From positions 4,768,001 through 4,832,000 of the forward strand of contig OZ257156.1 in assembly GCA_965279375.1 (NCBI GenBank): a stretch of 64,000 bases of DNA. Direction: 5' to 3'. Within the stretch, counting starts at the first letter, position 1. Each line of letters starts with the position of its first letter. Below are positions 16,166 to 34,636 of this stretch, in pieces. The notes beneath the pieces are model-generated. The model searched no databases, was not told the origin of the DNA, and was given only the letters and a program-made list of their open reading frames with translations. The stretch comes from Gemmatimonas sp. (GTDB taxonomy: Bacteria > Gemmatimonadota > Gemmatimonadetes > Gemmatimonadales > Gemmatimonadaceae). Position numbers and translations under genes: made by a program.

Positions 16166-16543
16166 TTACTTGCAGGTCGCGCCGCCCGGCTCACCTTCGG
16201 CCTGACCAGCCGGCGTGGCGCTGCCGACACCGATGGCGCAGGTGGAACCCGTCGCGTTGGCGTGCGTGGCCTGACCCGACCAGCCCGTCGCCGTGGCGGC
16301 GGTCACGCTGAGGGCAACGCCCGACGAACCAGCCGGCGCCGTGAAGCCAGCGTACGTGTTGTTGTCCGAGAACCACGCTTCAGCGGCCGGGACGAGGTTC
16401 TTGAGGTCCGACTTCATTGCCGTGATGTAGGCCTTCTTCTTCGTGTCGGCGAACTTCGGAATCGCGATCGCGGCCAGGATGCCGATGATGACGACGACGA
16501 TGAGGAGTTCGATGAGGGTGAAACCCTTGCGAGTGCGCTTCAT
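16166..16543 (-). CDS. pilA: Type IVa major pilin, copy 1
   Basis: MKRTRKG|FTLIELLIVVVIIGILAAIAIPKF; C-terminal Cys pair; SD GGAG. Confidence 0.92.
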   Translation of the reverse strand: MKRTRKGFTLIELLIVVVIIGILAAIAIPKFADTKKKAYITAMKSDLKNLVPAAEAWFSDNNTYAGFTAPAGSSGVALSVTAATATGWSGQATHANATGSTCAIGVGSATPAGQAEGEPGGATCK

Positions 16544-16613
16544 GAGAGAAACTCCGAGACGGGGTGTTGATACGTCGCCGAAGCCCGTGTGGCTCAGCGC
16601 ATGCCTGATGCTA

Positions 16614-16630
16614 TGGCAAACGCCTTGCCA
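16614..16630 (-). promoter_or_regulatory. Sigma54 -24/-12 promoter of pilA copy 1
   Basis: TGGCAAGGCGTTTGC with GG-N10-GC spacing, about 70 nt upstream of ATG; sigma54 activator PilR encoded nearby. Confidence 0.75.
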
Positions 16631-16850
16631 GACTCATCCATTGAGTACAACGCGTTAATTTACATACACTTACGATCGACAACGGCGAAAATATCCGGGA
16701 CGAACGGCATGTCGCTTTGCAATTCCTCTTGCAGGATGCAATCCGCACCCACAGGGCTGGATCGGCACGCCACAAACGCAACGAGGGGCCGAGCTTTCGC
16801 TCGACCCCCCAAGCCCCGGCTCTGGAGAGCCGGGTGTGTTGCGATGGACC

Positions 16851-17228
16851 TTACTTGCAGGTCGCGCCGCCCGGCTCGCCTTCGGCCTGACCGGCCGGCG
16901 TGGCGCTGCCGACACCGATGGCGCAGGTGGAACCCGTCGCGTTGGCGTGCGTGGCCTGACCCGACCAGCCCGTCGCCGTGGCGGCGGTCACGCTGAGCGC
17001 AACGCCCGAGGAACCCGGCGGAGCCGTGAAGCCAGCGTACGTGTTGTTGTCCGAGAACCACGCTTCAGCGGCCGGAACGAGGTTCTTGAGGTCCGACTTC
17101 ATGGCCGTCACGTACGCCTTCTTCTTCGTGTCGGCGAACTTCGGAATCGCGATCGCGGCCAAGATGCCGATGATGACGACGACGATCAGGAGTTCGATGA
17201 GGGTAAAACCTTTGCGCGACTTCGACAT
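16851..17228 (-). CDS. pilA: Type IVa major pilin, copy 2
   Basis: MSKSRKG|FTLIELLIVVVIIGILAAIAIPKF; SD GGAGA; 125 aa. Confidence 0.92.
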   Translation of the reverse strand: MSKSRKGFTLIELLIVVVIIGILAAIAIPKFADTKKKAYVTAMKSDLKNLVPAAEAWFSDNNTYAGFTAPPGSSGVALSVTAATATGWSGQATHANATGSTCAIGVGSATPAGQAEGEPGGATCK

Positions 17229-17298
17229 TGTATCTCTCCGAGAGGGGGGCTGACGTTCAGTCGGGTGAGTGCCGACTGACTCGACGCCACCGTGATTG

Positions 17299-17313
17299 GC
17301 AGATTGCACGCCA
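17299..17313 (-). promoter_or_regulatory. Sigma54 -24/-12 promoter of pilA copy 2
   Basis: TGGCGTGCAATCTGC with GG-N10-GC, about 70 nt upstream of ATG, the same spacing as copy 1. Confidence 0.68.
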
Positions 17314-17399
17314 CGCGGGCGGATTCAATCAAAGTCGTTGCAGCGTCATCACTTCCATCAAATCCTTGCGCCGCAACTCGGCGCATCGCTCACCGTGTA

Positions 17400-17417
17400 T
17401 TGCACGATGTCGTGCAA
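17400..17417. promoter_or_regulatory. Candidate PilR upstream activator site
   Basis: Palindrome TTGCACGA-TG-TCGTGCAA about 90 bp upstream of the sigma54 box; IHF-like CATCAAATCCTTG between them. Confidence 0.5.
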
Positions 17418-17448
17418 CATGCGCGGGTTCATCGGGAGCGTTGTTCGA

Positions 17449-17847
17449 CTACTGGCACACCGGTTCGCTCGTCGCGCTGCCACCGTAGCTCAATGTGCAG
17501 GTGATGCCGGGAACGTTTGCATGCGTTGCCGTAGCAGCCCAAGTCGTCACACCAACGGTGATGTTGAGCGTGACACCCGCTGATCCCTGCGGAGCAACCA
17601 CGTTCGCATAGCTGCCATCCATCGCATACTTCGACTCGGCGGTCGACGCGAGGTTGCGAAGATCCGCCTTCATGGCCGTGATGTACGCGCGCTCCTTGGA
17701 GGCGGTGTACTTGGTGATGGCGATCGTGGAGAGAATGCCAATGACGACGACGACCGCGAGGATCTCGATCAACGTGAACGCTGCGCGTCGTCGTTTGGCG
17801 CGGTTTCGTGCCGTCCGCGAGGGATGCTGCGACTCGACCTGCGTCAT
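17449..17847 (-). CDS. Type IV pilin (divergent paralogue)
   Basis: RRRAA|FTLIEILAVVVVIGILSTIAI; AYITAMKADLRNL shared with pilA; C-terminal Cys pair. Confidence 0.85.
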   Translation of the reverse strand: MTQVESQHPSRTARNRAKRRRAAFTLIEILAVVVVIGILSTIAITKYTASKERAYITAMKADLRNLASTAESKYAMDGSYANVVAPQGSAGVTLNITVGVTTWAATATHANVPGITCTLSYGGSATSEPVCQ

Positions 17848-19233
17848 TCACGCCTCTCCGTATCGTACAAGTTTGCGATAGAGCGTCGAAGGATCGATGC
17901 CCAGCATTTCGGCGGCGCGGCTTTTGTTGCCACCTTCGTTTTGCAGCACCCACTGGATGTACGCGCGTTCGATCGCTTCGAGCGTTGGGCTCGTCGGTAC
18001 GCGCTCGGTCACCAGCGGCTCCGCGCGACGCTCCGTGATGCGTTCAGGCAGCGCGTCCTGGTGGATGACGGAACCTGCCGAGAGGATGACGGCGCGTTCG
18101 AGTGCGTTCTCGAGTTCGCGCACGTTGCCCGGCCACTGGTAGGCCATGAGGACATCGAGCGCGCCTTCGGAAAGTTGCTTGGGAGCGCCGCCGCGCAACG
18201 TGGCGGAGCGCTCGAGGAATGTTTCCGCGAGCAGCGGGATGTCTTCGCGGCGCTGTCGCAGCGGCGGCAGGTGCACCGCGATCACATTGAGGCGATAGAA
18301 GAGGTCTGCGCGGAAGCTGCCGCGCTTGATCTCCTCCTCAAGGTTTCGATTGGTCGCCGCAATCACGCGAGCGTCCACCGGCTGCGATTCCGTCGCACCG
18401 ACGGGAATGATTTCACGCTGTTGCAAGACGCGCAGCAGTTTCACTTGCGTGGACGCCGTCGTCTCGCCGATTTCGTCGAGAAAGAACGTGCCGCTCTGCG
18501 CGGCGGCAAAGAGACCCTGCTTGTCCTTGACCGCGCCCGTGAAGCTGCCCTTCACGTGACCGAACAGTTCGCTCTCGAGCAGCGACTCGGGCAGCGCACC
18601 GCAGTTGATCGACAGAAAGCTGTGATCTGCGCGTGACGACAGATCGTGCACGTATCTCGCGATGACTTCCTTACCCGTGCCCGATTCGCCAGTGATCAGG
18701 ACGGTGGAGTCCGTCGGCGCCACCGTTTCCGCGAGGCGCAGCACATCCAACCAGCTGCGACTGTTGCCAACCGGTCTCCCCGTTGTATTCCTCTCGCGTC
18801 GCTTGATCTCCTGCTTGAGCACCTGATTCTCTGCACGCAGCTTCCGATGCTCCGCGGCGCGGCGAAGAATTGCCAGCAGCTCGTCGTTGCGAAACGGTTT
18901 CTGGATGTAGTAGAACGCGCCTTCGTTGACCGCCTGAATGGCCGATTGCAACGTTGCTTGCGCGGTCATCAGAATGACGGGGATCTCCGGGTCCACCGAT
19001 CGCGCTGTGCTGAGCACCTGCACGCCACCGATGTCAGGCATGCGCACATCGGTGATGACGATGTCGGGACGCAGCTCGTTGATGCGCTCGACGCCCTGCT
19101 TTCCGCCGTGCGCGGTAAACGGGATGAATCCTTCGCCCTTGAGCAGGATGCGCAGCGAGTCAAGAATTCCGACTTCGTCGTCCACGATCAGGACGCGCGG
19201 CGCGGTCTCGCTCGGTGAGGCAGTGGCAATCAT
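17848..19233 (-). CDS. pilR: Sigma54-dependent response regulator (PilR/NtrC family)
   Basis: Receiver, GESGTGKE, GSFTGA loop, FLDEIGE, WPGNVRELEN, Fis-type HTH. Confidence 0.88.
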   Translation of the reverse strand: MIATASPSETAPRVLIVDDEVGILDSLRILLKGEGFIPFTAHGGKQGVERINELRPDIVITDVRMPDIGGVQVLSTARSVDPEIPVILMTAQATLQSAIQAVNEGAFYYIQKPFRNDELLAILRRAAEHRKLRAENQVLKQEIKRRERNTTGRPVGNSRSWLDVLRLAETVAPTDSTVLITGESGTGKEVIARYVHDLSSRADHSFLSINCGALPESLLESELFGHVKGSFTGAVKDKQGLFAAAQSGTFFLDEIGETTASTQVKLLRVLQQREIIPVGATESQPVDARVIAATNRNLEEEIKRGSFRADLFYRLNVIAVHLPPLRQRREDIPLLAETFLERSATLRGGAPKQLSEGALDVLMAYQWPGNVRELENALERAVILSAGSVIHQDALPERITERRAEPLVTERVPTSPTLEAIERAYIQWVLQNEGGNKSRAAEMLGIDPSTLYRKLVRYGEA

Positions 19234-23490: not shown

Positions 23491-23958
23491 GTGAGCGACG
23501 AACCACACGACGAGTCGCTGTTGCCTCCAGAGCCCGAGTCGCTGGAAGTCACGCGTACGGTGCGCATTCCCGTGGCAGAGCTCGAGCTGCGTGCGATCAC
23601 CGGAAGCGGTCCTGGCGGACAGCACGTCAATCGCAGCGCCACTCGTGTTGCGCTTCGCTGGAATGTGCGCGCGAGTCGCGCGCTCTCAGATGAACAGCGG
23701 GCGCGCGTGCTGGGCAAGCTGGCATCGCGTCTGGACGGCGACGGTGCGTTGCGCATCGTGGCGGGGGAGTACCGTAGCCAGCAGCAGAACCGGCGCGCGG
23801 CCCTCGAGCGGCTGGTCGGCATCGTGGAGCGGGCGCTCGTCGTGCAGAAGTCGCGCAAAGCAACGAAGCCGACGCGCGGGTCTATCGAGCGCCGGCTCAC
23901 CGACAAACGTCAACGTGCGGATACCAAGCGTGGGCGCCGCAAGGACGCCCACGACTAG
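23491..23958 (+). CDS. arfB: Alternative ribosome-rescue peptidyl-tRNA hydrolase
   Basis: SGPGGQHVNR, RSQQQNR, basic tail KATKPTRGSIERRL. Confidence 0.94.
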   Translation: MSDEPHDESLLPPEPESLEVTRTVRIPVAELELRAITGSGPGGQHVNRSATRVALRWNVRASRALSDEQRARVLGKLASRLDGDGALRIVAGEYRSQQQNRRAALERLVGIVERALVVQKSRKATKPTRGSIERRLTDKRQRADTKRGRRKDAHD

Positions 23959-23978: not shown

Positions 23979-24713
23979 TCAGTACACGACGACGTTCGCG
24001 CCCAGAAAGTACGTCACGAAATCAGCGCGACCGCGCAGTGGCACCGGATCTCGATTGTTCTGGAACGCATCCCGCACTCGCTGATCGTTCAGGTAGCGCA
24101 CATCATCGTGGCGCAAAAAGCGAGCGCCAAGATCGATACGTACCGGTCTGCTGCCGTTGTAGACGCGAAGCGTGCTGCCCACCGCGCCGCCGTAGGCAAG
24201 CACGGCGTCGCTGCTGTTGGTAGTGCGGGCAAAGGGCGTATTGTCGCTCTGCGTCCCTTCGACGGAACTCTCCGTCCAGAACACCGACATGCCGCCCAGC
24301 GCCGCGACGTAGGGAGCAACGGGTCCATTGCCGAACTGAAGCTGCGGTCCGGTGACCAGCGAGAAAATGTTGTTCGAGGTGCGGAGGTCGAGCTTGACGA
24401 GCCCACCGGTGCCGGCGAGCGGAATTCGGCGCGTCTCGTTGCCGTAGTTCAGAACGCCGAGATCGACGCGCCAGTTGGCAATGGACTGTGGATCGAGGCG
24501 CCAGATCATCGAGGCACCGACGCCGAAGCCGTTGCCGGTGTTCTGCCCGAAATCACCGCGTGGTTCAGTGACGAGGAAGTGCGCCGCTCCGGAGAATCGG
24601 CCAGTGAGTGCACGCGGCGTCGAGGCCTGTGCGGAGAGCGAGTGCGTGGCCACGAGGCACGCGAGAGTCGGCACGCTTAGTCGAGCGGCCCGTGACAGGA
24701 ATGCGGCGAGCAT
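23979..24713 (-). CDS. Outer-membrane beta-barrel protein
   Basis: Signal peptide, alternating beta strands, PYVAALGG, terminal aromatic residue. Confidence 0.7.
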   Translation of the reverse strand: MLAAFLSRAARLSVPTLACLVATHSLSAQASTPRALTGRFSGAAHFLVTEPRGDFGQNTGNGFGVGASMIWRLDPQSIANWRVDLGVLNYGNETRRIPLAGTGGLVKLDLRTSNNIFSLVTGPQLQFGNGPVAPYVAALGGMSVFWTESSVEGTQSDNTPFARTTNSSDAVLAYGGAVGSTLRVYNGSRPVRIDLGARFLRHDDVRYLNDQRVRDAFQNNRDPVPLRGRADFVTYFLGANVVVY

Positions 24714-24866: not shown

Positions 24867-24919
24867 TGCGGCCCGGACTTGAATCCCGAGTGATACGGTC
24901 GCAATCATTCGCCTCGCTC

Positions 24920-25336
24920 ATGCTCACGCTGCCCGTCTCCCGACTTGCCCGCACGATTTCGCTCGCGCTCAGCGCGGGGTTTTTGTGGTGCGCGCTCGTT
25001 GGGTTGTCCGAACCGAGGTTGTCGGCGGCGGTCGGCACCGCGGGCGTAGCGCAGCTGGCGGGTCACGGCCCTGATGTGGTGCTGCAGCACGTGCTGCGCG
25101 CGGATGACGGTGAAGACGCGTCCGGCACACAGCGGAGTTGGCGCCGCTCGTCGACACGGCGCACGTTACGATCGATTGCGGCACGCGTTCTGGTGTCCGC
25201 GTTGCCCGGGAACCCGCTGCCGTCGGTGTCGTATCCCGGCGGGGGCGTGTGCGTACGAAATAGGCTCGCGCGTCGTGGCGCGGTCGCGCTGCGCCTGCTG
25301 AGCGCGCCGACTCGCGCACCGCCCAGCCTCGCATAG
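24920..25336 (+). CDS. Putative leader/arrest peptide: N-terminal hydrophobic segment, C-terminal RAPP motif
   Basis: RLARTISLALSAGFLWCALVGL ... APTRAPPSLA-stop; start could also be GTG 24890. Confidence 0.6.
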   Translation: MLTLPVSRLARTISLALSAGFLWCALVGLSEPRLSAAVGTAGVAQLAGHGPDVVLQHVLRADDGEDASGTQRSWRRSSTRRTLRSIAARVLVSALPGNPLPSVSYPGGGVCVRNRLARRGAVALRLLSAPTRAPPSLA

Positions 25337-25508
25337 CATTTCGACGTCCGTCTCGTGTCGCGTGCACCCCCGGGTGCGCTGCGCGCGGTGCCACGTCGAG
25401 TAGCGTCGTTGGACATGTGACGCCGTCGCATGTCGTTTATCCTCGTGCTTCAGCTGTGCGGTCTCGACGCGCCGATGCGCGTCGCCGTTCACCCTACTTG
25501 CATACGCT

Positions 25509-27734
25509 ATGTCGGCTCAGGCCACGCGCGTCAATCAGATCGTCAGCTCTGCTCTTCATTTGGACGTTGACCAGGGTCGCTGGCGCGCACTCACGCGACA
25601 GCTCGATCCTACCGCTCCCATTGCCGCGCGAATCCGCTCCATCGGTGGCGCCGTTGATATCGGATATCTCGATCGGGAATTGCCGCTGGAGACGCTGCGG
25701 GAAGCGATCCGGGAGCGCACGACGCCGCTCGTTCTGCTGAACGATACGTCGGACGAGGCGGTCATCCTCTGCCGAGACGAGCGCGATGAGGTGCAGGCAC
25801 TGGTCGTCCGGCGCAACGGCAGCGATGAGACACTGCGCGAGAATGGGCAGAAGCTGGCCGATCAGATCTGGCAGCGGCTTGGGTCGCCCACCGTGGCGAC
25901 TGCGCTCGCGCCGTTGGCACTGCGCTCCGCGATCAGCGCCATGCCATCGTCTCGGCCGCACAGCCCCGCCAGCACCGGCACACACGACGACGAGCCCGAT
26001 CATCATCCATCGCCTGTCGAGCGCACGCTCACGCTCTTTGCGCGCGAGAAGCGCGAGATCCTGTCGATCTTCTTTTACGCCACGCTCGCGGGCGGGCTCA
26101 GTCTCGTGCTACCGCTGGCCGTCGGCGGCATTGTGCAACTGGTGCAGGGGCGACTGTTCCTGCAGCCGGTAGTTCTGCTCATCTCCTTCGTGGTGCTGGG
26201 CACCATCGTGGCCGGGGTGATTCAGGTCGGTTTGCTGCGCGTGGTGGAGCGCATCCAGCAGCGTGTCTTCGCGCGCATGGCACTCGAGTTCGCGTTCCGC
26301 GTGCCGCGCATGCGTTACAGCGCGTCGCTCGAGACCAACCTCCCGGAGCAGATGAATCGGCTCTTCGAGGCGATCGCCATCCAGAAGGGTGTGCAGAAGA
26401 TCCTGCTCGAGGTCCCGACGGCGCTTTTGACCATCCTGTTCAGTCTCGTCCTGCTGACGCTGTACAGCCCGTGGTTTTCAGTGTTTGCGATCGTGGTGAC
26501 GGCGCTGTTGTACGTCGTGATCCGCTGGACCGGGCCCGAGGGGCTCGAGACGTCCATCGTGGAGTCGAAGTACAAGTACAAGGCCGTGCACTGGCTCGAG
26601 GAGCTCGCGCGCGCCTTCCACGCGTTCAAGTACGCCGGCGACTCGATGCTGCCGGTGGAGCGCATGGATGACGTAGTCACCGGCTACCTCAAGTATCGTC
26701 GCAAGCACTTCGCGGTCATCGTCAAGCAGACCGTGGCACTGATCGGCTTCAAGACGTTCATCACTGCGGCGGTGCTCATCATCGGCGCCACGCTCGTGCA
26801 GACGAATCGACTCTTGCTCGGCCAGTTCGTTGCGGCCGAAATCGTGATCGTCACCGTGCTCGCAGGCGTCGAGAAGTTGATTTCGAGTCTCTCCACCGTC
26901 TACGACATCCTGACATCGGTGGACAAGTCGGGACACGTCGCCGACATCCCGCTGGAGCCGCGTGGGGGCCTCGCGCCGATCAACACACCGGGGGTGGGCA
27001 TCGCCATCGAAACCAAGGACGTGCGCTTCCGGTACGCCGGCGCGTCGAATCCGTCGGTTGACGGTATCTCGATCTCCGTTCGTCCGGGTGAGCGCGTGGC
27101 CATCATGGGTTTCGACGGATCCGGCCGCTCCACGCTCCTCAAGCTGCTGGGCGGGCTCATCGACGAGTACGACGGCACGATTCGCTTTGATGGCATCACG
27201 CTGCGCGACCTGGACCGCCCGGCACTGCGCGCGCGCATCGGGCAGATGCTGTCGTGGACGGACCTGTTCGAAGGCACCGTCGAGGAGAACGTCAGCGTCG
27301 GTCGTGCGCACATCACGCCCTTGCAGGTGCGTCGCGCGCTCGACGATCTGGCCCTCACCGACGAAGTGCAGCAGCTGCCGAACGGCATGCAAACCGAAAT
27401 CACCAACAGCGGTCGCACGCTGCCGGCACATCTCGCGAACAAGCTGCTCGTGGCACAAGGGATCGCGGGCGATCCGCGGCTGGTCGTGCTCGACGACTTC
27501 TTCCAGAATCTCGACGCCGGCTCACGAGCCCTGATCATTCAATTGCTCACGGATCGTGCGCGACCTTGGACGGTCGTCGCGGTGTCAAACGATCCCAATC
27601 TGCTCGCTGCGTTCGATCGCGTGATCGTGGTGCATGAGGGACGCGTGGTGAAGGAAGGACCCTTCGAAGAGTTGCAGCACGATCCGATCTGCCGCTTGTT
27701 GCTGCATGATCCCTCCAGCTCGGTGGAGGCGTAA
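25509..27734 (+). CDS. T1SS/peptidase-domain-family ABC transporter (N-domain, TMD, degenerate NBD)
   Basis: 6-TM domain, LGQFVAAEIV; NBD GFDGSGRST, LPAHL, LVVLDD, VSND. Confidence 0.88.
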   Translation: MSAQATRVNQIVSSALHLDVDQGRWRALTRQLDPTAPIAARIRSIGGAVDIGYLDRELPLETLREAIRERTTPLVLLNDTSDEAVILCRDERDEVQALVVRRNGSDETLRENGQKLADQIWQRLGSPTVATALAPLALRSAISAMPSSRPHSPASTGTHDDEPDHHPSPVERTLTLFAREKREILSIFFYATLAGGLSLVLPLAVGGIVQLVQGRLFLQPVVLLISFVVLGTIVAGVIQVGLLRVVERIQQRVFARMALEFAFRVPRMRYSASLETNLPEQMNRLFEAIAIQKGVQKILLEVPTALLTILFSLVLLTLYSPWFSVFAIVVTALLYVVIRWTGPEGLETSIVESKYKYKAVHWLEELARAFHAFKYAGDSMLPVERMDDVVTGYLKYRRKHFAVIVKQTVALIGFKTFITAAVLIIGATLVQTNRLLLGQFVAAEIVIVTVLAGVEKLISSLSTVYDILTSVDKSGHVADIPLEPRGGLAPINTPGVGIAIETKDVRFRYAGASNPSVDGISISVRPGERVAIMGFDGSGRSTLLKLLGGLIDEYDGTIRFDGITLRDLDRPALRARIGQMLSWTDLFEGTVEENVSVGRAHITPLQVRRALDDLALTDEVQQLPNGMQTEITNSGRTLPAHLANKLLVAQGIAGDPRLVVLDDFFQNLDAGSRALIIQLLTDRARPWTVVAVSNDPNLLAAFDRVIVVHEGRVVKEGPFEELQHDPICRLLLHDPSSSVEA

Positions 27735-27736
27735 CC

Positions 27737-29107
27737 ATGGCCAACAATCAAAGGCAATCCGATCTCGACCTCGAGCGCGAACTCAAGCGCCTGCCGCTCG
27801 AAACCACCGCACTGCTGGGCGAGGCCGACACCGGTCGTGTCGTCTCGCGCTGGTTGATCGGCATTCTGGTGACCCTCATCGTCATCCTGTTTCTCCCCTG
27901 GCAGCAGAACGTGCAGGGCGAAGGGAATGTGACGGCGCTGAGTCCTTCCGATCGTCCGCAGTCGCTCACGACGCGCATCGACGGTCGCATCGAGCAGTGG
28001 TTCGTGAGCGAGGGGCAGTACGTCAAGAAGGGCGACTCCATCGCGCGCATCTCGGAAATCAAGGATGACTATCTCAATCCGAACGTGCTGCCGCTCACGA
28101 CGCAGCAGCAGCAGGCCAAGGAATCGGCGATTGCGGAGAAGTTGAACAAGGCCGCCGCGCTCGAGACACAGATTGTGCAGCAGGAGGCGCAGCGCGACTT
28201 CAAGCTGCAGCAGACGCGCAACAAGGTGGAGCAGTATCGCGCCGAGATCCGACAGGCGTCGCTCGAGGATTCCGTCGCACGCGATCAGCTGCGTCGTCGC
28301 GAGCGGCTGTATCGCGACACGCTGGGACTCGTGTCGGTGAACGAGTTGCAGACGTTCCAGATCCGTGTGCAGTCTGCTGCGGCCAAGCTCATCGAAAAGC
28401 AGCAGATGCTGGCGATCACCGAAACCGACCTGCAGAGCATTCCTGCGGAGTACGGCGAGAAGATCGCCAAGGCTCGCTCTGATCGGGCGGCCACGCTGGC
28501 GGAGGTGAGCGAATCGCGCTCCGAAGTGGCCAAGCTCAAGGACAAGGTGGGCTCCCTCACCATTCGCAACGGCTTCTACCTCATCGAGGCGCCGCAGGAT
28601 GGCTATGTGGTGCGCGCGTCCAAGGCCGGCCAGGGTGAGATCGTGAAAGCGGGCGACGCGATCGTCACGTTGCAGCCGGCGCGTCCGCGCAAGGCTGTGG
28701 AGCTGTTCGTCAAGCCGATGGACGTCGCCCTGCTCAAGCCCGGGCGCCATGTGCGTGTGTTCTTCGATGGCTGGCCGGCACTGCAGATCAGCGGCTGGCC
28801 GCAAGTCGCCGTCGGCACCTTTGGCGCGCAGGTGGTGGTGATCGACCAGTTCCCGTCAAAGGGCGGCAAGTTCCGCGTGCTGTTGATCGAAGACATCACG
28901 CGCGATGCGCCTTGGCCGGCTCAGTTGCGACTTGGCACGGGCGCACAGGGATGGGCCATGCTCGACAACGTGACCGTCGGCTGGGAAATCTGGCGCACAC
29001 TCAACGGCTTCCCGCTCTCCATCAATCCGGATGAAGCGTTGCCGGGCACTGAAGTGGCGGGCGACAAGGGAAGCAAGGACGGCGCGAAGGGCGGAGGCAA
29101 GCCGTGA
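27737..29107 (+). CDS. HlyD-family membrane fusion protein
   Basis: TM, LPWQQNVQGEG, lipoyl halves (GRIEQWFVSEGQYVKKGD; IEAPQDGYV), coiled coil, FDGWPA. Confidence 0.9.
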   Translation: MANNQRQSDLDLERELKRLPLETTALLGEADTGRVVSRWLIGILVTLIVILFLPWQQNVQGEGNVTALSPSDRPQSLTTRIDGRIEQWFVSEGQYVKKGDSIARISEIKDDYLNPNVLPLTTQQQQAKESAIAEKLNKAAALETQIVQQEAQRDFKLQQTRNKVEQYRAEIRQASLEDSVARDQLRRRERLYRDTLGLVSVNELQTFQIRVQSAAAKLIEKQQMLAITETDLQSIPAEYGEKIAKARSDRAATLAEVSESRSEVAKLKDKVGSLTIRNGFYLIEAPQDGYVVRASKAGQGEIVKAGDAIVTLQPARPRKAVELFVKPMDVALLKPGRHVRVFFDGWPALQISGWPQVAVGTFGAQVVVIDQFPSKGGKFRVLLIEDITRDAPWPAQLRLGTGAQGWAMLDNVTVGWEIWRTLNGFPLSINPDEALPGTEVAGDKGSKDGAKGGGKP

Positions 29108-30624
29108 TGCGCCGAGCCGTCATGTGCATCGCCAGTGGACGCCGCACGACGTCGATGCTCCTCTCGTCGCTGCTCGTACCATCGCTGCTCGTCGCACAGC
29201 CGCGTCGCTCGTCCGACAGCACGGTCACCCGAACCGCGGAACTGGTGGGCGCACGCATCGATACCTCGGGCGTGCCGTTCACCTTCCCCGCGTTCGTCGA
29301 CCTCATCCTGCGGGAGCATCCGGTCGCGCAGCAAGCCAAGCTCGTCGCGGCTGCGGCGCGCAATGACCTGCGCACAGCGTGGGGCGCGTTCGATCCAACC
29401 ATCTCCGCGAGCTGGGATCAGAAGCGGTTCGGCGGCACGACGTACTACAACTACTTCGACGCCGAAATGAAGATTCCGCTCCCCGTTGGCGCGGATGTCA
29501 CCATCGCCTTCGACCGGACCGCGGGTCGCTACATCAATCCCGATCGCCGCACGAACGGCGGTGGCACCTTCGAGGCCGGGATCAGCATTCCCCTTGGCCA
29601 GCGCATCGTGACCGATGAGCGTCGCAACGCGCTGGTGCAGGCGCGTGCGGCTCGTGATGCCGGTGCAGCTGACCAGACTGCGATGATCAACAAGCTCCTG
29701 TACAGTGCCGCCAAGGACTACGGCGGCTGGTACGAGTCCTGGCGACGTCGCGCGGTGGCGCAAGAGGGCGAAGCGCTGGCCGACTTCCGCCTCACCGCGG
29801 TTCGCCGACGCGTGATCAACGGAGAGAGCGCGCCCATCGACACGATCGAAGCGATGCTGGAACTGCAGCGGCGACAGGTCACACGCTTCGAAGCGGAAGC
29901 AGCCTTCTATCTCGCGACGCTCGACGTCACGGCCTATCTCTGGGATGATGCCGGACGTCCAGCTCCGTTGCCGCGCGACGCCAAGCCGGTGCTCGATGGC
30001 ATCGAACGCAGCCAGGTGGACTCCACCCAGCTCGACTCGTTGCTCTCGCTTGCCACACGCCGCAATCCGGATCTGCTCAAGGTGCAGGCCCGCGTGAAGC
30101 AGGCGCAGGCGACCCGCCTCTTCACAACGCAGGGGCTGCTGCCGCTCGCCGAGGGCAAGCTGGCTGGACTGAGTGAGCAAGGCTCCGACGATGCGTTTCT
30201 CGATGGCGCGCGCCTCGATGACAACTACAAGGCCGGGCTGTCCATCAAGTCGCCGCTGCTGTTCCTCAAGGAGACCGGCCGTTTCGGTGCGGCGGGCCAA
30301 CGACTCGAATTCCAGCGCCTCGAGCTCGACCGGCTGCGGCGCAACACAGAGTTCGACGCGCGTGCGGCGATCTTCGATCTCGCCAACCTCGAGCGCATGC
30401 TCGGCCTGCAGCGCAACAACGTCCGGAACGCACGGCTACTGCGCGACGCCGAGCAGATCCGCTACGAGAACGGAGAAAGCACCCTGTTGATCGTGAATAT
30501 TCGCGAACGGCTGGTTCTCGACGAATCGGTCAAGCTCGCCGCCCTTGAAGCAAAGGTCGCCAGTGCGCGCGGAGCGCTGGTGGTCGCCACCGGCGAGCGT
30601 GCGCTGCTCACGCCCAAGCAGTAA
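29104..30624 (+). CDS. TolC-family outer-membrane factor
   Basis: Signal peptide, ILREHPV, GAFDP, GESAPIDTIEA, YENGESTLLIVNIRE. Confidence 0.88.
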   Translation: MMRRAVMCIASGRRTTSMLLSSLLVPSLLVAQPRRSSDSTVTRTAELVGARIDTSGVPFTFPAFVDLILREHPVAQQAKLVAAAARNDLRTAWGAFDPTISASWDQKRFGGTTYYNYFDAEMKIPLPVGADVTIAFDRTAGRYINPDRRTNGGGTFEAGISIPLGQRIVTDERRNALVQARAARDAGAADQTAMINKLLYSAAKDYGGWYESWRRRAVAQEGEALADFRLTAVRRRVINGESAPIDTIEAMLELQRRQVTRFEAEAAFYLATLDVTAYLWDDAGRPAPLPRDAKPVLDGIERSQVDSTQLDSLLSLATRRNPDLLKVQARVKQAQATRLFTTQGLLPLAEGKLAGLSEQGSDDAFLDGARLDDNYKAGLSIKSPLLFLKETGRFGAAGQRLEFQRLELDRLRRNTEFDARAAIFDLANLERMLGLQRNNVRNARLLRDAEQIRYENGESTLLIVNIRERLVLDESVKLAALEAKVASARGALVVATGERALLTPKQ

Positions 30625-33671: not shown

Positions 33672-34199
33672 ATGCCCCAGACCGCCCGCGCTTATCTGCT
33701 GGACCGATTCCGCTCTGACGCCGTCGCACTCCGCGCGCGCGCGGATACTCTTGGTGCAGCTCCGCGAAAGGCTGCGCCGACGCCTGGACCGGACGCAGCC
33801 ATGTCGCTTCGCATGGCGAACGCGTGCGATGCGGTCGTCGCGATGATCGACGCCGTGCCCGAGGCACCCGACGCGGCCCGCGCGCTCGGTGCCATCGCCG
33901 AGCTGATCCCGCTGCTCGAGCATCGCGCCGCGCAGGAGCAAGGCGCACCACCGGTGCGCGCGGTCTACCTCGGTGCCGCCACGCGCATTCGTGAAGTACA
34001 GGCCGCTGAGTCGAAGGCTGCAGAATCGGTCAACGCCTCCACTCATGACAAAGACGTCATCCACCACGATGGCGAGCAGGACCTGGACGACGAAGCGCTC
34101 AGCGGTGATCTCGAGGACGACATCGATGACGATTCGGATGACGAGACCGATGATGACGATGTCGACGACGACGAACTGCATCCGGGGACGCCACTGTGA
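33672..34199 (+). CDS. Hypothetical helical protein with long acidic tail
   Basis: ORF packed between neighbours; D/E-rich C-terminus. Confidence 0.7.
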   Translation: MPQTARAYLLDRFRSDAVALRARADTLGAAPRKAAPTPGPDAAMSLRMANACDAVVAMIDAVPEAPDAARALGAIAELIPLLEHRAAQEQGAPPVRAVYLGAATRIREVQAAESKAAESVNASTHDKDVIHHDGEQDLDDEALSGDLEDDIDDDSDDETDDDDVDDDELHPGTPL

Positions 34200-34636
34200 G
34201 CAAGCGGCACGGTGCGCCGCCCGCTGCAGAGCCGGATGACGACGACAACACACCTGCCGGTAAGGTGCGTCTCGACAAGTGGCTGTGGGCCGCGCGGTTC
34301 TTCAAGACGCGCGCGCTTGCGGCCGAAGCGATCGACGGCGGCAAGGTCGATGTGAACGGCGATCGTGCAAAGCGCGCCAAGCTCGTGCAAGCGGGTGATC
34401 ATGTGCGACTGCGCAACGGCCCCATCGAGTGGCAGCTTGAAGTGACGGGCATCGCCGAGCGTCGCGGCTCTGCGGAAACTGCGCACGGACTCTATCAGGA
34501 AACAGCCGCAGGTCGCGCACGCCGTGAGCAGGTGCAGGAGCATTTGCGCTCGATGCCAACGGCATTTGCATACGGCGAAAGCAAACCCGGCAAGCATGAT
34601 CGTCGCGCGATTCGACGACTCAAGGGTGACGATTGA
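34196..34636 (+). CDS. hslR: Ribosome-associated heat shock protein Hsp15 (S4 domain)
   Basis: VRLDKWLWAARFFKTRALA, GKVDVNG, RRGSA...LYQET, KPGKHDRR. Confidence 0.93.
   Translation: MSKRHGAPPAAEPDDDDNTPAGKVRLDKWLWAARFFKTRALAAEAIDGGKVDVNGDRAKRAKLVQAGDHVRLRNGPIEWQLEVTGIAERRGSAETAHGLYQETAAGRARREQVQEHLRSMPTAFAYGESKPGKHDRRAIRRLKGDD

Follow-up and report, generated by a model that had tools for sequence, protein, structure and literature searches.

A conserved candidate RAPP arrest-peptide leader with an arginine patch precedes an ABC-MFP-TolC operon in Gemmatimonas

Upstream of an ABC-MFP-TolC operon of Gemmatimonas sp. lies an open reading frame of 138 codons which, judged from its sequence and its conservation, probably encodes a translated RAPP arrest peptide that regulates the operon. 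We put the probability of this reading at about 85%. All positions refer to the window, i.e. the complete stretch of 64,000 nucleotides of contig OZ257156.1 (assembly GCA_965279375.1) that was analysed. The features of the locus, from the promoter to the last gene of the operon, are as follows.

24879..24908, + strand: sigma-70-like promoter/operator element, TTGAAT-CCCGA-N9-TCG followed by a -10-like hexamer (putative function, from conservation)
24920..25336, + strand: candidate RAPP leader ORF, 138 aa (conserved frame, synonymous-biased change)
24935..25003, + strand: N-terminal basic-then-hydrophobic helix, residues 6-28 (AlphaFold and hydropathy)
25139..25171, + strand: arginine patch W74-x-R76-x3-R80-R81-x-x-R84 (conservation in 31 sequences)
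25313..25324, + strand: RAPP motif, R132-P135 (R, P and P invariant in 31/31)
25337..25508, + strand: intergenic region, 172 nt (93-267 in homologues), with hairpins in the window copy and C-rich near the ABC start (folding, Rfam)
25509..27734, + strand: ABC exporter subunit, 741 aa, with C39-like N-terminal, transmembrane and degenerate nucleotide-binding domains (Pfam, NCBIfam)
27737..29107, + strand: HlyD-family membrane fusion protein (MFP), 456 aa (PF13437, PF16576; TIGR01843 below cut-off)
29104..30624, + strand: TolC-family outer membrane factor, 506 aa (PF02321; start overlaps the MFP stop)

The original prediction had described the 138-aa frame, RAPP at 25313-25324 and a gap of 172 nt, and all three are as described: three codons and a TAG follow the motif, and the ABC gene begins with an ATG at 25509. 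The basic-then-hydrophobic N-terminus of that prediction is also borne out. Two arginines precede a hydrophobic stretch whose best 12-residue Kyte-Doolittle (KD) mean is 2.02, from residue 16, and the AlphaFold model (mean pLDDT 61) contains a single helix at residues 6-28 and no other secondary structure. In all 30 full-length homologues the hydrophobic peak (KD 2.0-3.1) falls inside the first 31 residues, and RAPP lies 1-5 residues before the stop. By its appearance in hydropathy and model, the N-terminus is a Sec signal peptide or signal anchor. About 100 residues separate this signal-like region from RAPP, in keeping with the localisation signal and the spacer of more than 30 residues that characterise RAPP peptides.

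The stretch in between had been taken for a low-complexity spacer. It is not featureless, since it contains a second conserved element that was overlooked, the arginine patch W74-R84. Against a mean column identity of about 28% in the 31 leaders, R80, R84, R132, P134 and P135 are invariant, and R76, R81 and A133 are conserved to at least 90%. The patch carries a net charge of +4 to +7 within 15 residues. Arginine is favoured over lysine throughout the leaders (606 R vs 11 K over the 31 sequences, from GC-rich genomes, which favour arginine). The distance from the RR of the patch to RAPP is 50-52 residues in 29/30 full-length leaders (SD 0.85), whereas the distance from the start to RR ranges from 77 to 111 (SD 8.0); counted from the P-site proline, the patch spans residues 60 to 50. 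A reading of the patch as a Tat (twin-arginine) signal was rejected, as most homologues, judged by eye, have no hydrophobic region after it.

Substitution patterns follow this anatomy. In ten pairs of leaders, pN/pS is lowest in the patch (0.20) and in RAPP plus the six residues upstream (0.23), intermediate in the N-terminus (0.52) and highest in the spacers (0.67-0.71). Synonymous codon variation occurs at all RAPP and patch positions. For the complete leader, dN/dS is 0.32-0.74 (17 pairs), while the other five reading frames of the region are open in just 3-8 of 31 loci. On these substitution data, selection on the leader acts at the protein level. An indel test at the DNA level was uninformative on frame-keeping, with 8/20 gaps being multiples of three in the leader and in the intergenic gap alike. 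The ORF scores near zero with a home-made codon model and has no match in Pfam or NCBIfam. Its neighbours in the Atlas are unnamed clusters at 0.96-0.97, and weak named ones at 0.91, among them SecM and CzcI, are leads only.

How much weight can be given to the motif itself depends on its background frequency. A six-frame scan of the genome for ORFs (70 aa or longer) with RAPP within 8 residues of the stop gives 53, compared with 9-66 for 11 control 4-mers; when an intergenic position and a downstream gene are also demanded, the numbers are 3 for RAPP and 0-4 for the controls. RAPP near a stop is thus common by chance in this genome, and the evidence has to come from conservation and not from a motif count in a single genome. 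Within the predicted proteins (4268 home-made gene calls), RAPP is the most depleted of all X-APP motifs, with 5 observed vs 34.4 expected, as would be expected if it impedes the ribosomes of the host. RAPP and RGPP have been reported to cause arrest in many contexts, to be purged from proteomes and to cluster near the C-termini of small signal-bearing proteins (PMC12992588), and 7/7 tested S. lividans proteins with C-terminal RAPP or RGPP arrested (PMC12992588 section 14). At the alanine position of ApdA/ApdP, glycine is fully and proline partly tolerated (PMC12992588 section 7), so that the RGPP and RPPP variants among the leaders (in P0155 and L056, respectively) match substitutions that keep or partly keep arrest. 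The Gemmatimonas leader has the sequence traits of the RQH class of RAPP/RGPP arrest peptides, namely a length below 300 aa and a conserved RAPP-like motif near the C-terminus. By sequence, its setting also agrees with that class: it is flanked by a conserved promoter-like element upstream and by the ABC gene 93-267 nt downstream.

To assess conservation, ABC orthologues were collected from 41 relatives (17 matches), a genome collection (79 loci), 201 genomes of the phylum (9) and metagenomes (79 loci). In the close set (relatives and genome collection, ABC identity at least 65%, at least 330 nt of upstream sequence), RAPP near a stop was found within 300 nt of the ABC gene in 37/54 loci. Removal of 9 duplicates left 45 distinct close loci, all from Gemmatimonadaceae, of which 32 carry the leader (31 with RAPP, 1 with RPPP) and 13 do not. 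Control 4-mers upstream of the ABC gene occurred only inside the same leaders, or once. The 37 more distant loci gave two RAPP matches, both in other frames of the upstream gene; the matches before distant ABC genes in L083, L084 and L171 were discarded as other frames of the 3' end of the upstream gene. The metagenome set was first cleared of 18 duplicates and of 23 loci whose flanks were short. The leader was present in 14/16 further close loci, some near-identical to earlier ones, and RAPP in 2/22 distant loci, of which L167 alone looks real. The original prediction was to be given up if RAPP were not conserved upstream of orthologues; it is conserved in both the close and the metagenome set.

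A profile of the 31 leaders, searched over 401 genomes of the phylum, produced 7 strong matches, all of them before the gene for this same ABC protein, and 4 weak partial ones elsewhere. Protein searches with the leader returned 11 and 35 matches, and nearly all of the 22 that were inspected are built alike, RGPP replacing RAPP in one and RPPP in two (by sequence, genomic context aside). CxxC is absent from all 31 homologues and none of them matches DUF2946 up to E = 1, in agreement with the earlier suggestion that the leader, having no CxxC, is probably not a copper sensor.

To trace the history of the leader, 183 loci were filtered by length and identity; the 161 that remained gave, once exact duplicates had been merged, 135 distinct ABC proteins for a FastTree phylogeny. 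The close clade comprises 72 tips with a support of 0.965, of which 46 have the leader, 17 lack it and 9 are undetermined; outside this clade the leader is found in 1/62. Assuming a single gain, seven losses are needed. One of these left a relic: in L030 (239 nt from promoter to ABC), a deletion has joined the promoter to roughly the final 56 nt of the leader. RAPP has become QGPP there and the stop is lost, and the sequence aligns end to end with L051. In pairs of loci that lack the leader, the ABC gene is under purifying selection (dN/dS 0.08-0.17). Given about seven losses of the leader in which the pump was retained, the leader appears to be an optional control cassette, and not a subunit or an essential cargo. 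In the distant locus L167 (positions 985-1329), where the ABC protein is 42% identical, the promoter core recurs with a signal-bearing RAPP leader that is shorter (114 aa) and whose W-L-R-R patch is much nearer to RAPP. Going by its sequence, this leader reflects either an older origin or an independent gain.

The promoter-like element is present in 43 loci, some of which have the leader and some not; in four of them the ABC genes are only 47-48% identical. In most loci that lack the leader, this promoter is retained at a distance of 90-240 nt from the ABC gene. With a matrix built without the window site, that site scores 31.2 vs 14.6 for the next site and is unique in the genome; a strict consensus promoter scanner made no call at 24879-24908. 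The inner palindrome CGA-N9-TCG, kept in 39/43 loci, predates the leader in this clade and could be the operator of a regulator. In the window the leader starts 41 nt from the -35 hexamer, and in 28/29 homologues the first ATG (searched from 30 to 70 nt) lies at 37-41 nt. This fixed spacing implies a very short 5' untranslated region or none at all.

We did not find a conserved RNA switch at the ABC start codon, based on accessibility in 31 loci and pairing in 11. A terminator-like hairpin in the window gap (25412-25434) is not conserved, terminator-like hairpins being found in 2/31 loci, and the gap folds more strongly than shuffled sequences (z below -2) in just 7/31. Rfam searches of the gap gave no element or riboswitch up to E = 1. 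When the footprint of the stalled ribosome is masked, the accessibility of the start site changes by +0.023 on average (above +0.05 in 7/31 loci, below -0.05 in 2/31, calculated without shuffles). Pairing between the RAPP region and the gap was clearly above shuffles in 1/11 loci. A translational coupling hairpin of the SecM type is, with this pairing and these small changes, unsupported. The 3' half of the gap contains more C than G in 31/31 leader loci; this skew is not specific for Rho, because it is also seen in loci that lack the leader and upstream of genes generally. Rho is encoded in the genome.

For the way in which the leader might work, we propose release by the Sec machinery, gated by an arginine brake and coupled to Rho-type attenuation, a scheme drawn from analogy to which we give even odds. 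The shared promoter would start a nearly leaderless mRNA at the leader ATG, as the conserved spacing suggests, and the ribosome would stall with P134 in the P site and P135 in the A site, as expected from the motif class. The N-terminal signal would dock the stalled ribosome on SecYEG. At 50-60 residues from the peptidyl transferase centre, the patch would then sit at the mouth of the channel and resist translocation like Arg-85 of VemP, so that release would need a strong pull (SecA/SecDF, membrane potential or lipid state). In the last and least certain step, the stalled ribosome would keep Rho-type termination from acting in the long intergenic region, in the manner of CruR. The pump would thus be produced in cells with impaired export or an impaired envelope, and turned down once the peptide has been pulled free. 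The sign of this regulation, in which a stall turns the pump on, is borrowed from CruR, SecM and VemP, and Rho-type attenuation is taken as the default output step because Rho is present and the gap of 93-267 nt resembles that of CruR.

Nascent chains reach SecYEG at 40-50 residues from the peptidyl transferase centre, and arginine patches either slow the passage of the chain against the membrane potential or associate with anionic lipids (PMC7886326). In VemP of Vibrio alginolyticus, an exported arrest peptide, Arg-85 is conserved, lies outside the tunnel and brakes translocation, which renders release dependent on SecDF/PpiD (PMC7793623). We favour Sec-driven, patch-gated release because the distance of the patch fits contact with SecYEG and because of this precedent. 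The analogy is functional and implies no sequence kinship: VemP has another arrest motif and one arginine instead of a patch of four or five, and controls secDF2 (PMC7793623). Against an arginine brake it counts that AlphaFold gives the patch no structure and that the patch is altered in the L119 leader and displaced in L167. Moreover, a fixed spacing between sensor and RAPP in a peptide with a signal does not single out Sec, because CruR has the same layout and its signal is dispensable.

CruR in fact provides the model for the best of the alternatives, which we consider possible but clearly less probable than the Sec brake. The leader would again be a RAPP arrest peptide, with the Trp/Arg patch binding an anionic partner just outside the tunnel (an acidic lipid, a fatty acyl compound, a nucleotide, polyphosphate or the ribosome surface). 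Binding or folding would supply the force, the signal would be secondary and the ligand would be related to the cargo of the pump. CruR (Bp2923, DUF2946) of Bordetella pertussis, for which arrest has been demonstrated (PMC12992588 section 14), resembles the leader in its length of ~140 aa, its predicted export signal and its RAPP three residues from the C-terminus; a motif precedes RAPP by about 50 residues in both (in CruR, CXXC at 90-93 and RAPP at 139-142), the gaps are similar (162 nt, compared with 172 nt in Gemmatimonas) and both head envelope-transport operons (PMC9426467). A sensor motif at conserved spacing from RAPP is typical of CruR/CutF-type leaders, and the Gemmatimonas leader has one, although the motif is different. 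Specific binding would also suit the near absence of replacements of arginine by lysine and the retention of the tryptophan. In addition, a TetR regulator heads a distant, Bacteroidota-type copy of the operon (L095:5293-5964, where the ABC protein keeps the Walker A lysine), which hints at control by a small molecule. However, the patch is not predicted to fold, and a pN/pS of 0.52 points to selection on the signal region as well, which is present in 30/30 full-length copies.

The differences from CruR are equally plain. Instead of CXXC and DUF2946 the leader has the Arg/Trp patch, its target is an ABC-MFP-TolC exporter and not a TonB-dependent copper importer, and Rho dependence, a property of CruR, is for the Gemmatimonas leader a proposal. 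Since regulation by CruR needs no signal peptide (PMC9426467), the original prediction was mistaken in grouping it with peptides that are released by pulling. Signal and ligand can both matter, as in CutF (PMC9973294). The Gemmatimonas genome also contains an ordinary CruR-like arrangement, in which a second, His/Cys-containing RAPP leader of the CxxC type (G000:C1:4448503-4448830, - strand, L198) lies 83 nt before a gene for a TonB-dependent receptor.

It is unlikely that the leader is translated but senses nothing, acting either as a fixed damper on the operon or, after release, as a small exported peptide such as a cargo. The repeated loss of the leader without loss of the pump and the lack of an evident RNA switch would be compatible with this, and the proline-rich tail of CutF alone is not a strong staller (PMC9973294). 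On the other hand, a fixed distance from patch to RAPP combined with a free length from start to patch is the mark of a geometry set on the ribosome. The mature part is disordered in the AlphaFold model and ~28% conserved, and the cargo variant is weak because an indispensable cargo would not have disappeared on seven occasions.

The original prediction had the leader monitor the T1SS-like machine itself. The ABC, MFP and TolC-family genes abut or overlap and form the gene set of a type I secretion system (T1SS). As in HlyB/HlyD/TolC and the C39-peptidase bacteriocin exporters, C39-like, transmembrane and nucleotide-binding domains are joined in one chain with HlyD- and TolC-family partners. 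The best NCBIfam matches of the ABC protein are T1SS and bacteriocin exporters, but all are below cut-off. No solved close relative was found by sequence search, the best matches being P-glycoproteins. In an alignment with P-glycoprotein, the motifs that we take to be Walker A, Q-loop, signature, Walker B and H-loop read K->R, Q->W, LSGGQ->LPAHL, E->D and H->N, respectively. The Walker A lysine is kept in 7/135 distinct homologues, all distant, and replaced by R in 55, Q in 54 and E in 15 (other or unscored in 4); signature motif and catalytic glutamate are lost in the homologues as well. By its motifs, the protein thus departs from the intact ATPases of HlyBD-TolC type I secretion and looks like a pseudo-ATPase across Gemmatimonadota, with a nucleotide-binding domain at dN/dS 0.05-0.19. 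Judged by gene order and these motifs, the exporter is T1SS-like in layout with a degenerate ATPase. No close ABC paralogue turned up in the genome and no cargo gene next to the operon, and none of the 4268 home-made gene calls contains two or more RTX-type repeats, a search pattern that covers cargo of the RTX type.

With such a pump, we regard direct capacity feedback, in which the exporter engages the nascent leader (e.g. via its inactive C39-like domain) and pulls, as quite unlikely. The prediction is upheld in so far as a conserved RAPP leader is tied to the ABC-MFP-TolC operon, and the strong profile matches in the 401 genomes lie only before the ABC gene. The C39-like domain of HlyB binds unfolded substrate, and the N-terminal domain of the Gemmatimonas ABC protein resembles C39 peptidase-like domains among its Atlas look-alikes, with a single cysteine, at position 92. 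Yet constraint on the ABC protein is weakest in this domain, whether the leader is present or absent. Type I secretion reads uncleaved C-terminal signals, whereas the signal of the leader is N-terminal and Sec-like. An ATP-driven pull is doubtful because the ABC motifs are lost and there is no close partner ABC in the genome. Since the signal looks Sec-type and the ABC protein has no Walker A lysine, signature motif or catalytic glutamate, it is unlikely that the pump supplies the pull, and this part of the prediction, for which the gene calls gave no RTX-type substrate either, finds no support.

Finally, a chance open frame in GC-rich intergenic DNA, for which one could cite the abundance of RAPP near stops in six frames, the codon score near zero, the missing Pfam match and the empty strict promoter scan, is highly improbable, as frame, start position, motif and spacing are conserved across 46 distinct ABC lineages with synonymous-biased change.

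Several observations were made in the neighbourhood of the operon. The ribosome-rescue genes arfB and an Hsp15-like gene (window 23491-23958 and 34196-34636) flank it here and in many relatives, and in one distant clade an S4-domain (Hsp15-like) gene directly precedes the ABC gene; simple synteny could account for this. The two Gemmatimonadaceae clades (L077-L093 vs the window) have the ABC-MFP-TolC block in opposite orientations with respect to shared neighbours. An unannotated gene of 244 aa without a Pfam match (window 23979-24713) is adjacent in many loci of both clades. Further away, at 16166-17953, three tandem type IV pilin-like genes, two of them nearly identical, lie beside a sensor kinase and a sigma-54-type regulator.

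Other arrest peptides to which a candidate RAPP leader of this kind can be compared are ApdA/ApdP and the RQH family, with which it shares the N-terminal localisation signal, the variable spacer of more than 30 residues, the C-terminal RAPP and RGPP/RPPP as variants (PMC10987492, PMC12992588). Unlike ApdA/ApdP, it is not located upstream of secDF, secA or yidC; secD lies elsewhere in the genome and no RAPP leader was seen before it. The S. lividans secDF leader lacks a conserved internal motif (PMC12992588), whereas the Gemmatimonas leader has one. With ABC, MFP and TolC as its downstream genes, the leader falls outside the Sec/YidC monitors (SecM, VemP, ApdA, ApdP) as these are defined in PMC10987492.

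The original prediction had not recognised the pairing of such a leader with an exporter as described, which is correct in part. Upstream ORFs (uORFs) with RAPP outnumber those with AAPP before TolC genes (530 vs 380) and RND adaptors (620 vs 148; PMC12992588 Fig. 4B source data), and both classes are in the top 30 of the downstream genes listed there; an ABC class is not among these 30, although longer lists may include one. These uORFs and the CutF/CzcI-like leaders are likewise small signal-bearing RAPP ORFs at the head of tripartite export operons (PMC12992588, PMC9973294). Most rows inspected are His/Cys-rich like metal sensors and the pumps are RND-type (PMC12992588), in contrast to the Arg-rich leader and ABC-type pump of Gemmatimonas. 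The part of the supplement text of the same study that was searched contains neither 'ABC transporter' nor 'type I secretion' nor 'Gemmatimona'. A literature search over titles and the first parts of abstracts, with most subscription journals outside its range, returned no RAPP leader before an ABC/T1SS exporter, none with such an arginine patch, no account of the degenerate ABC family and no work combining Gemmatimonas with an arrest peptide. RAPP leaders before TolC/RND pumps are thus already catalogued, at least in the source data of PMC12992588, while the ABC exporter as a target and the arginine patch are unfamiliar.

The general principle that RAPP leaders precede diverse envelope genes is already published, and the range of the present leader is narrow, being mainly confined to Gemmatimonas. 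Its value lies in being a compact test case for questions that PMC12992588 leaves open, namely what triggers release and where the force comes from for RAPP leaders before genes other than sec/yidC. The characterised examples considered here are metal sensors; in this family the sensor candidate is an 11-residue Arg/Trp patch at a near-fixed distance from RAPP, natural variants that lack the leader are available behind the same promoter, and the genome is complete. Study of the leader would also open up an exporter that is conserved and uncharacterised, with an ABC subunit that seems incapable of ATP hydrolysis. A bolder idea, which we regard as rather doubtful, is that the patch acts at the mouth of SecYEG as a sensor of the inner membrane (its electrical or its lipid state) and switches on an ATP-independent 'pseudo-ABC' exporter, which would make the family the first member of a class of RAPP sensors for something other than metals. 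If true, Gemmatimonas would possess a sensor of its energy state coupled to an ATP-independent 'pseudo-ABC' envelope channel under strong selection.
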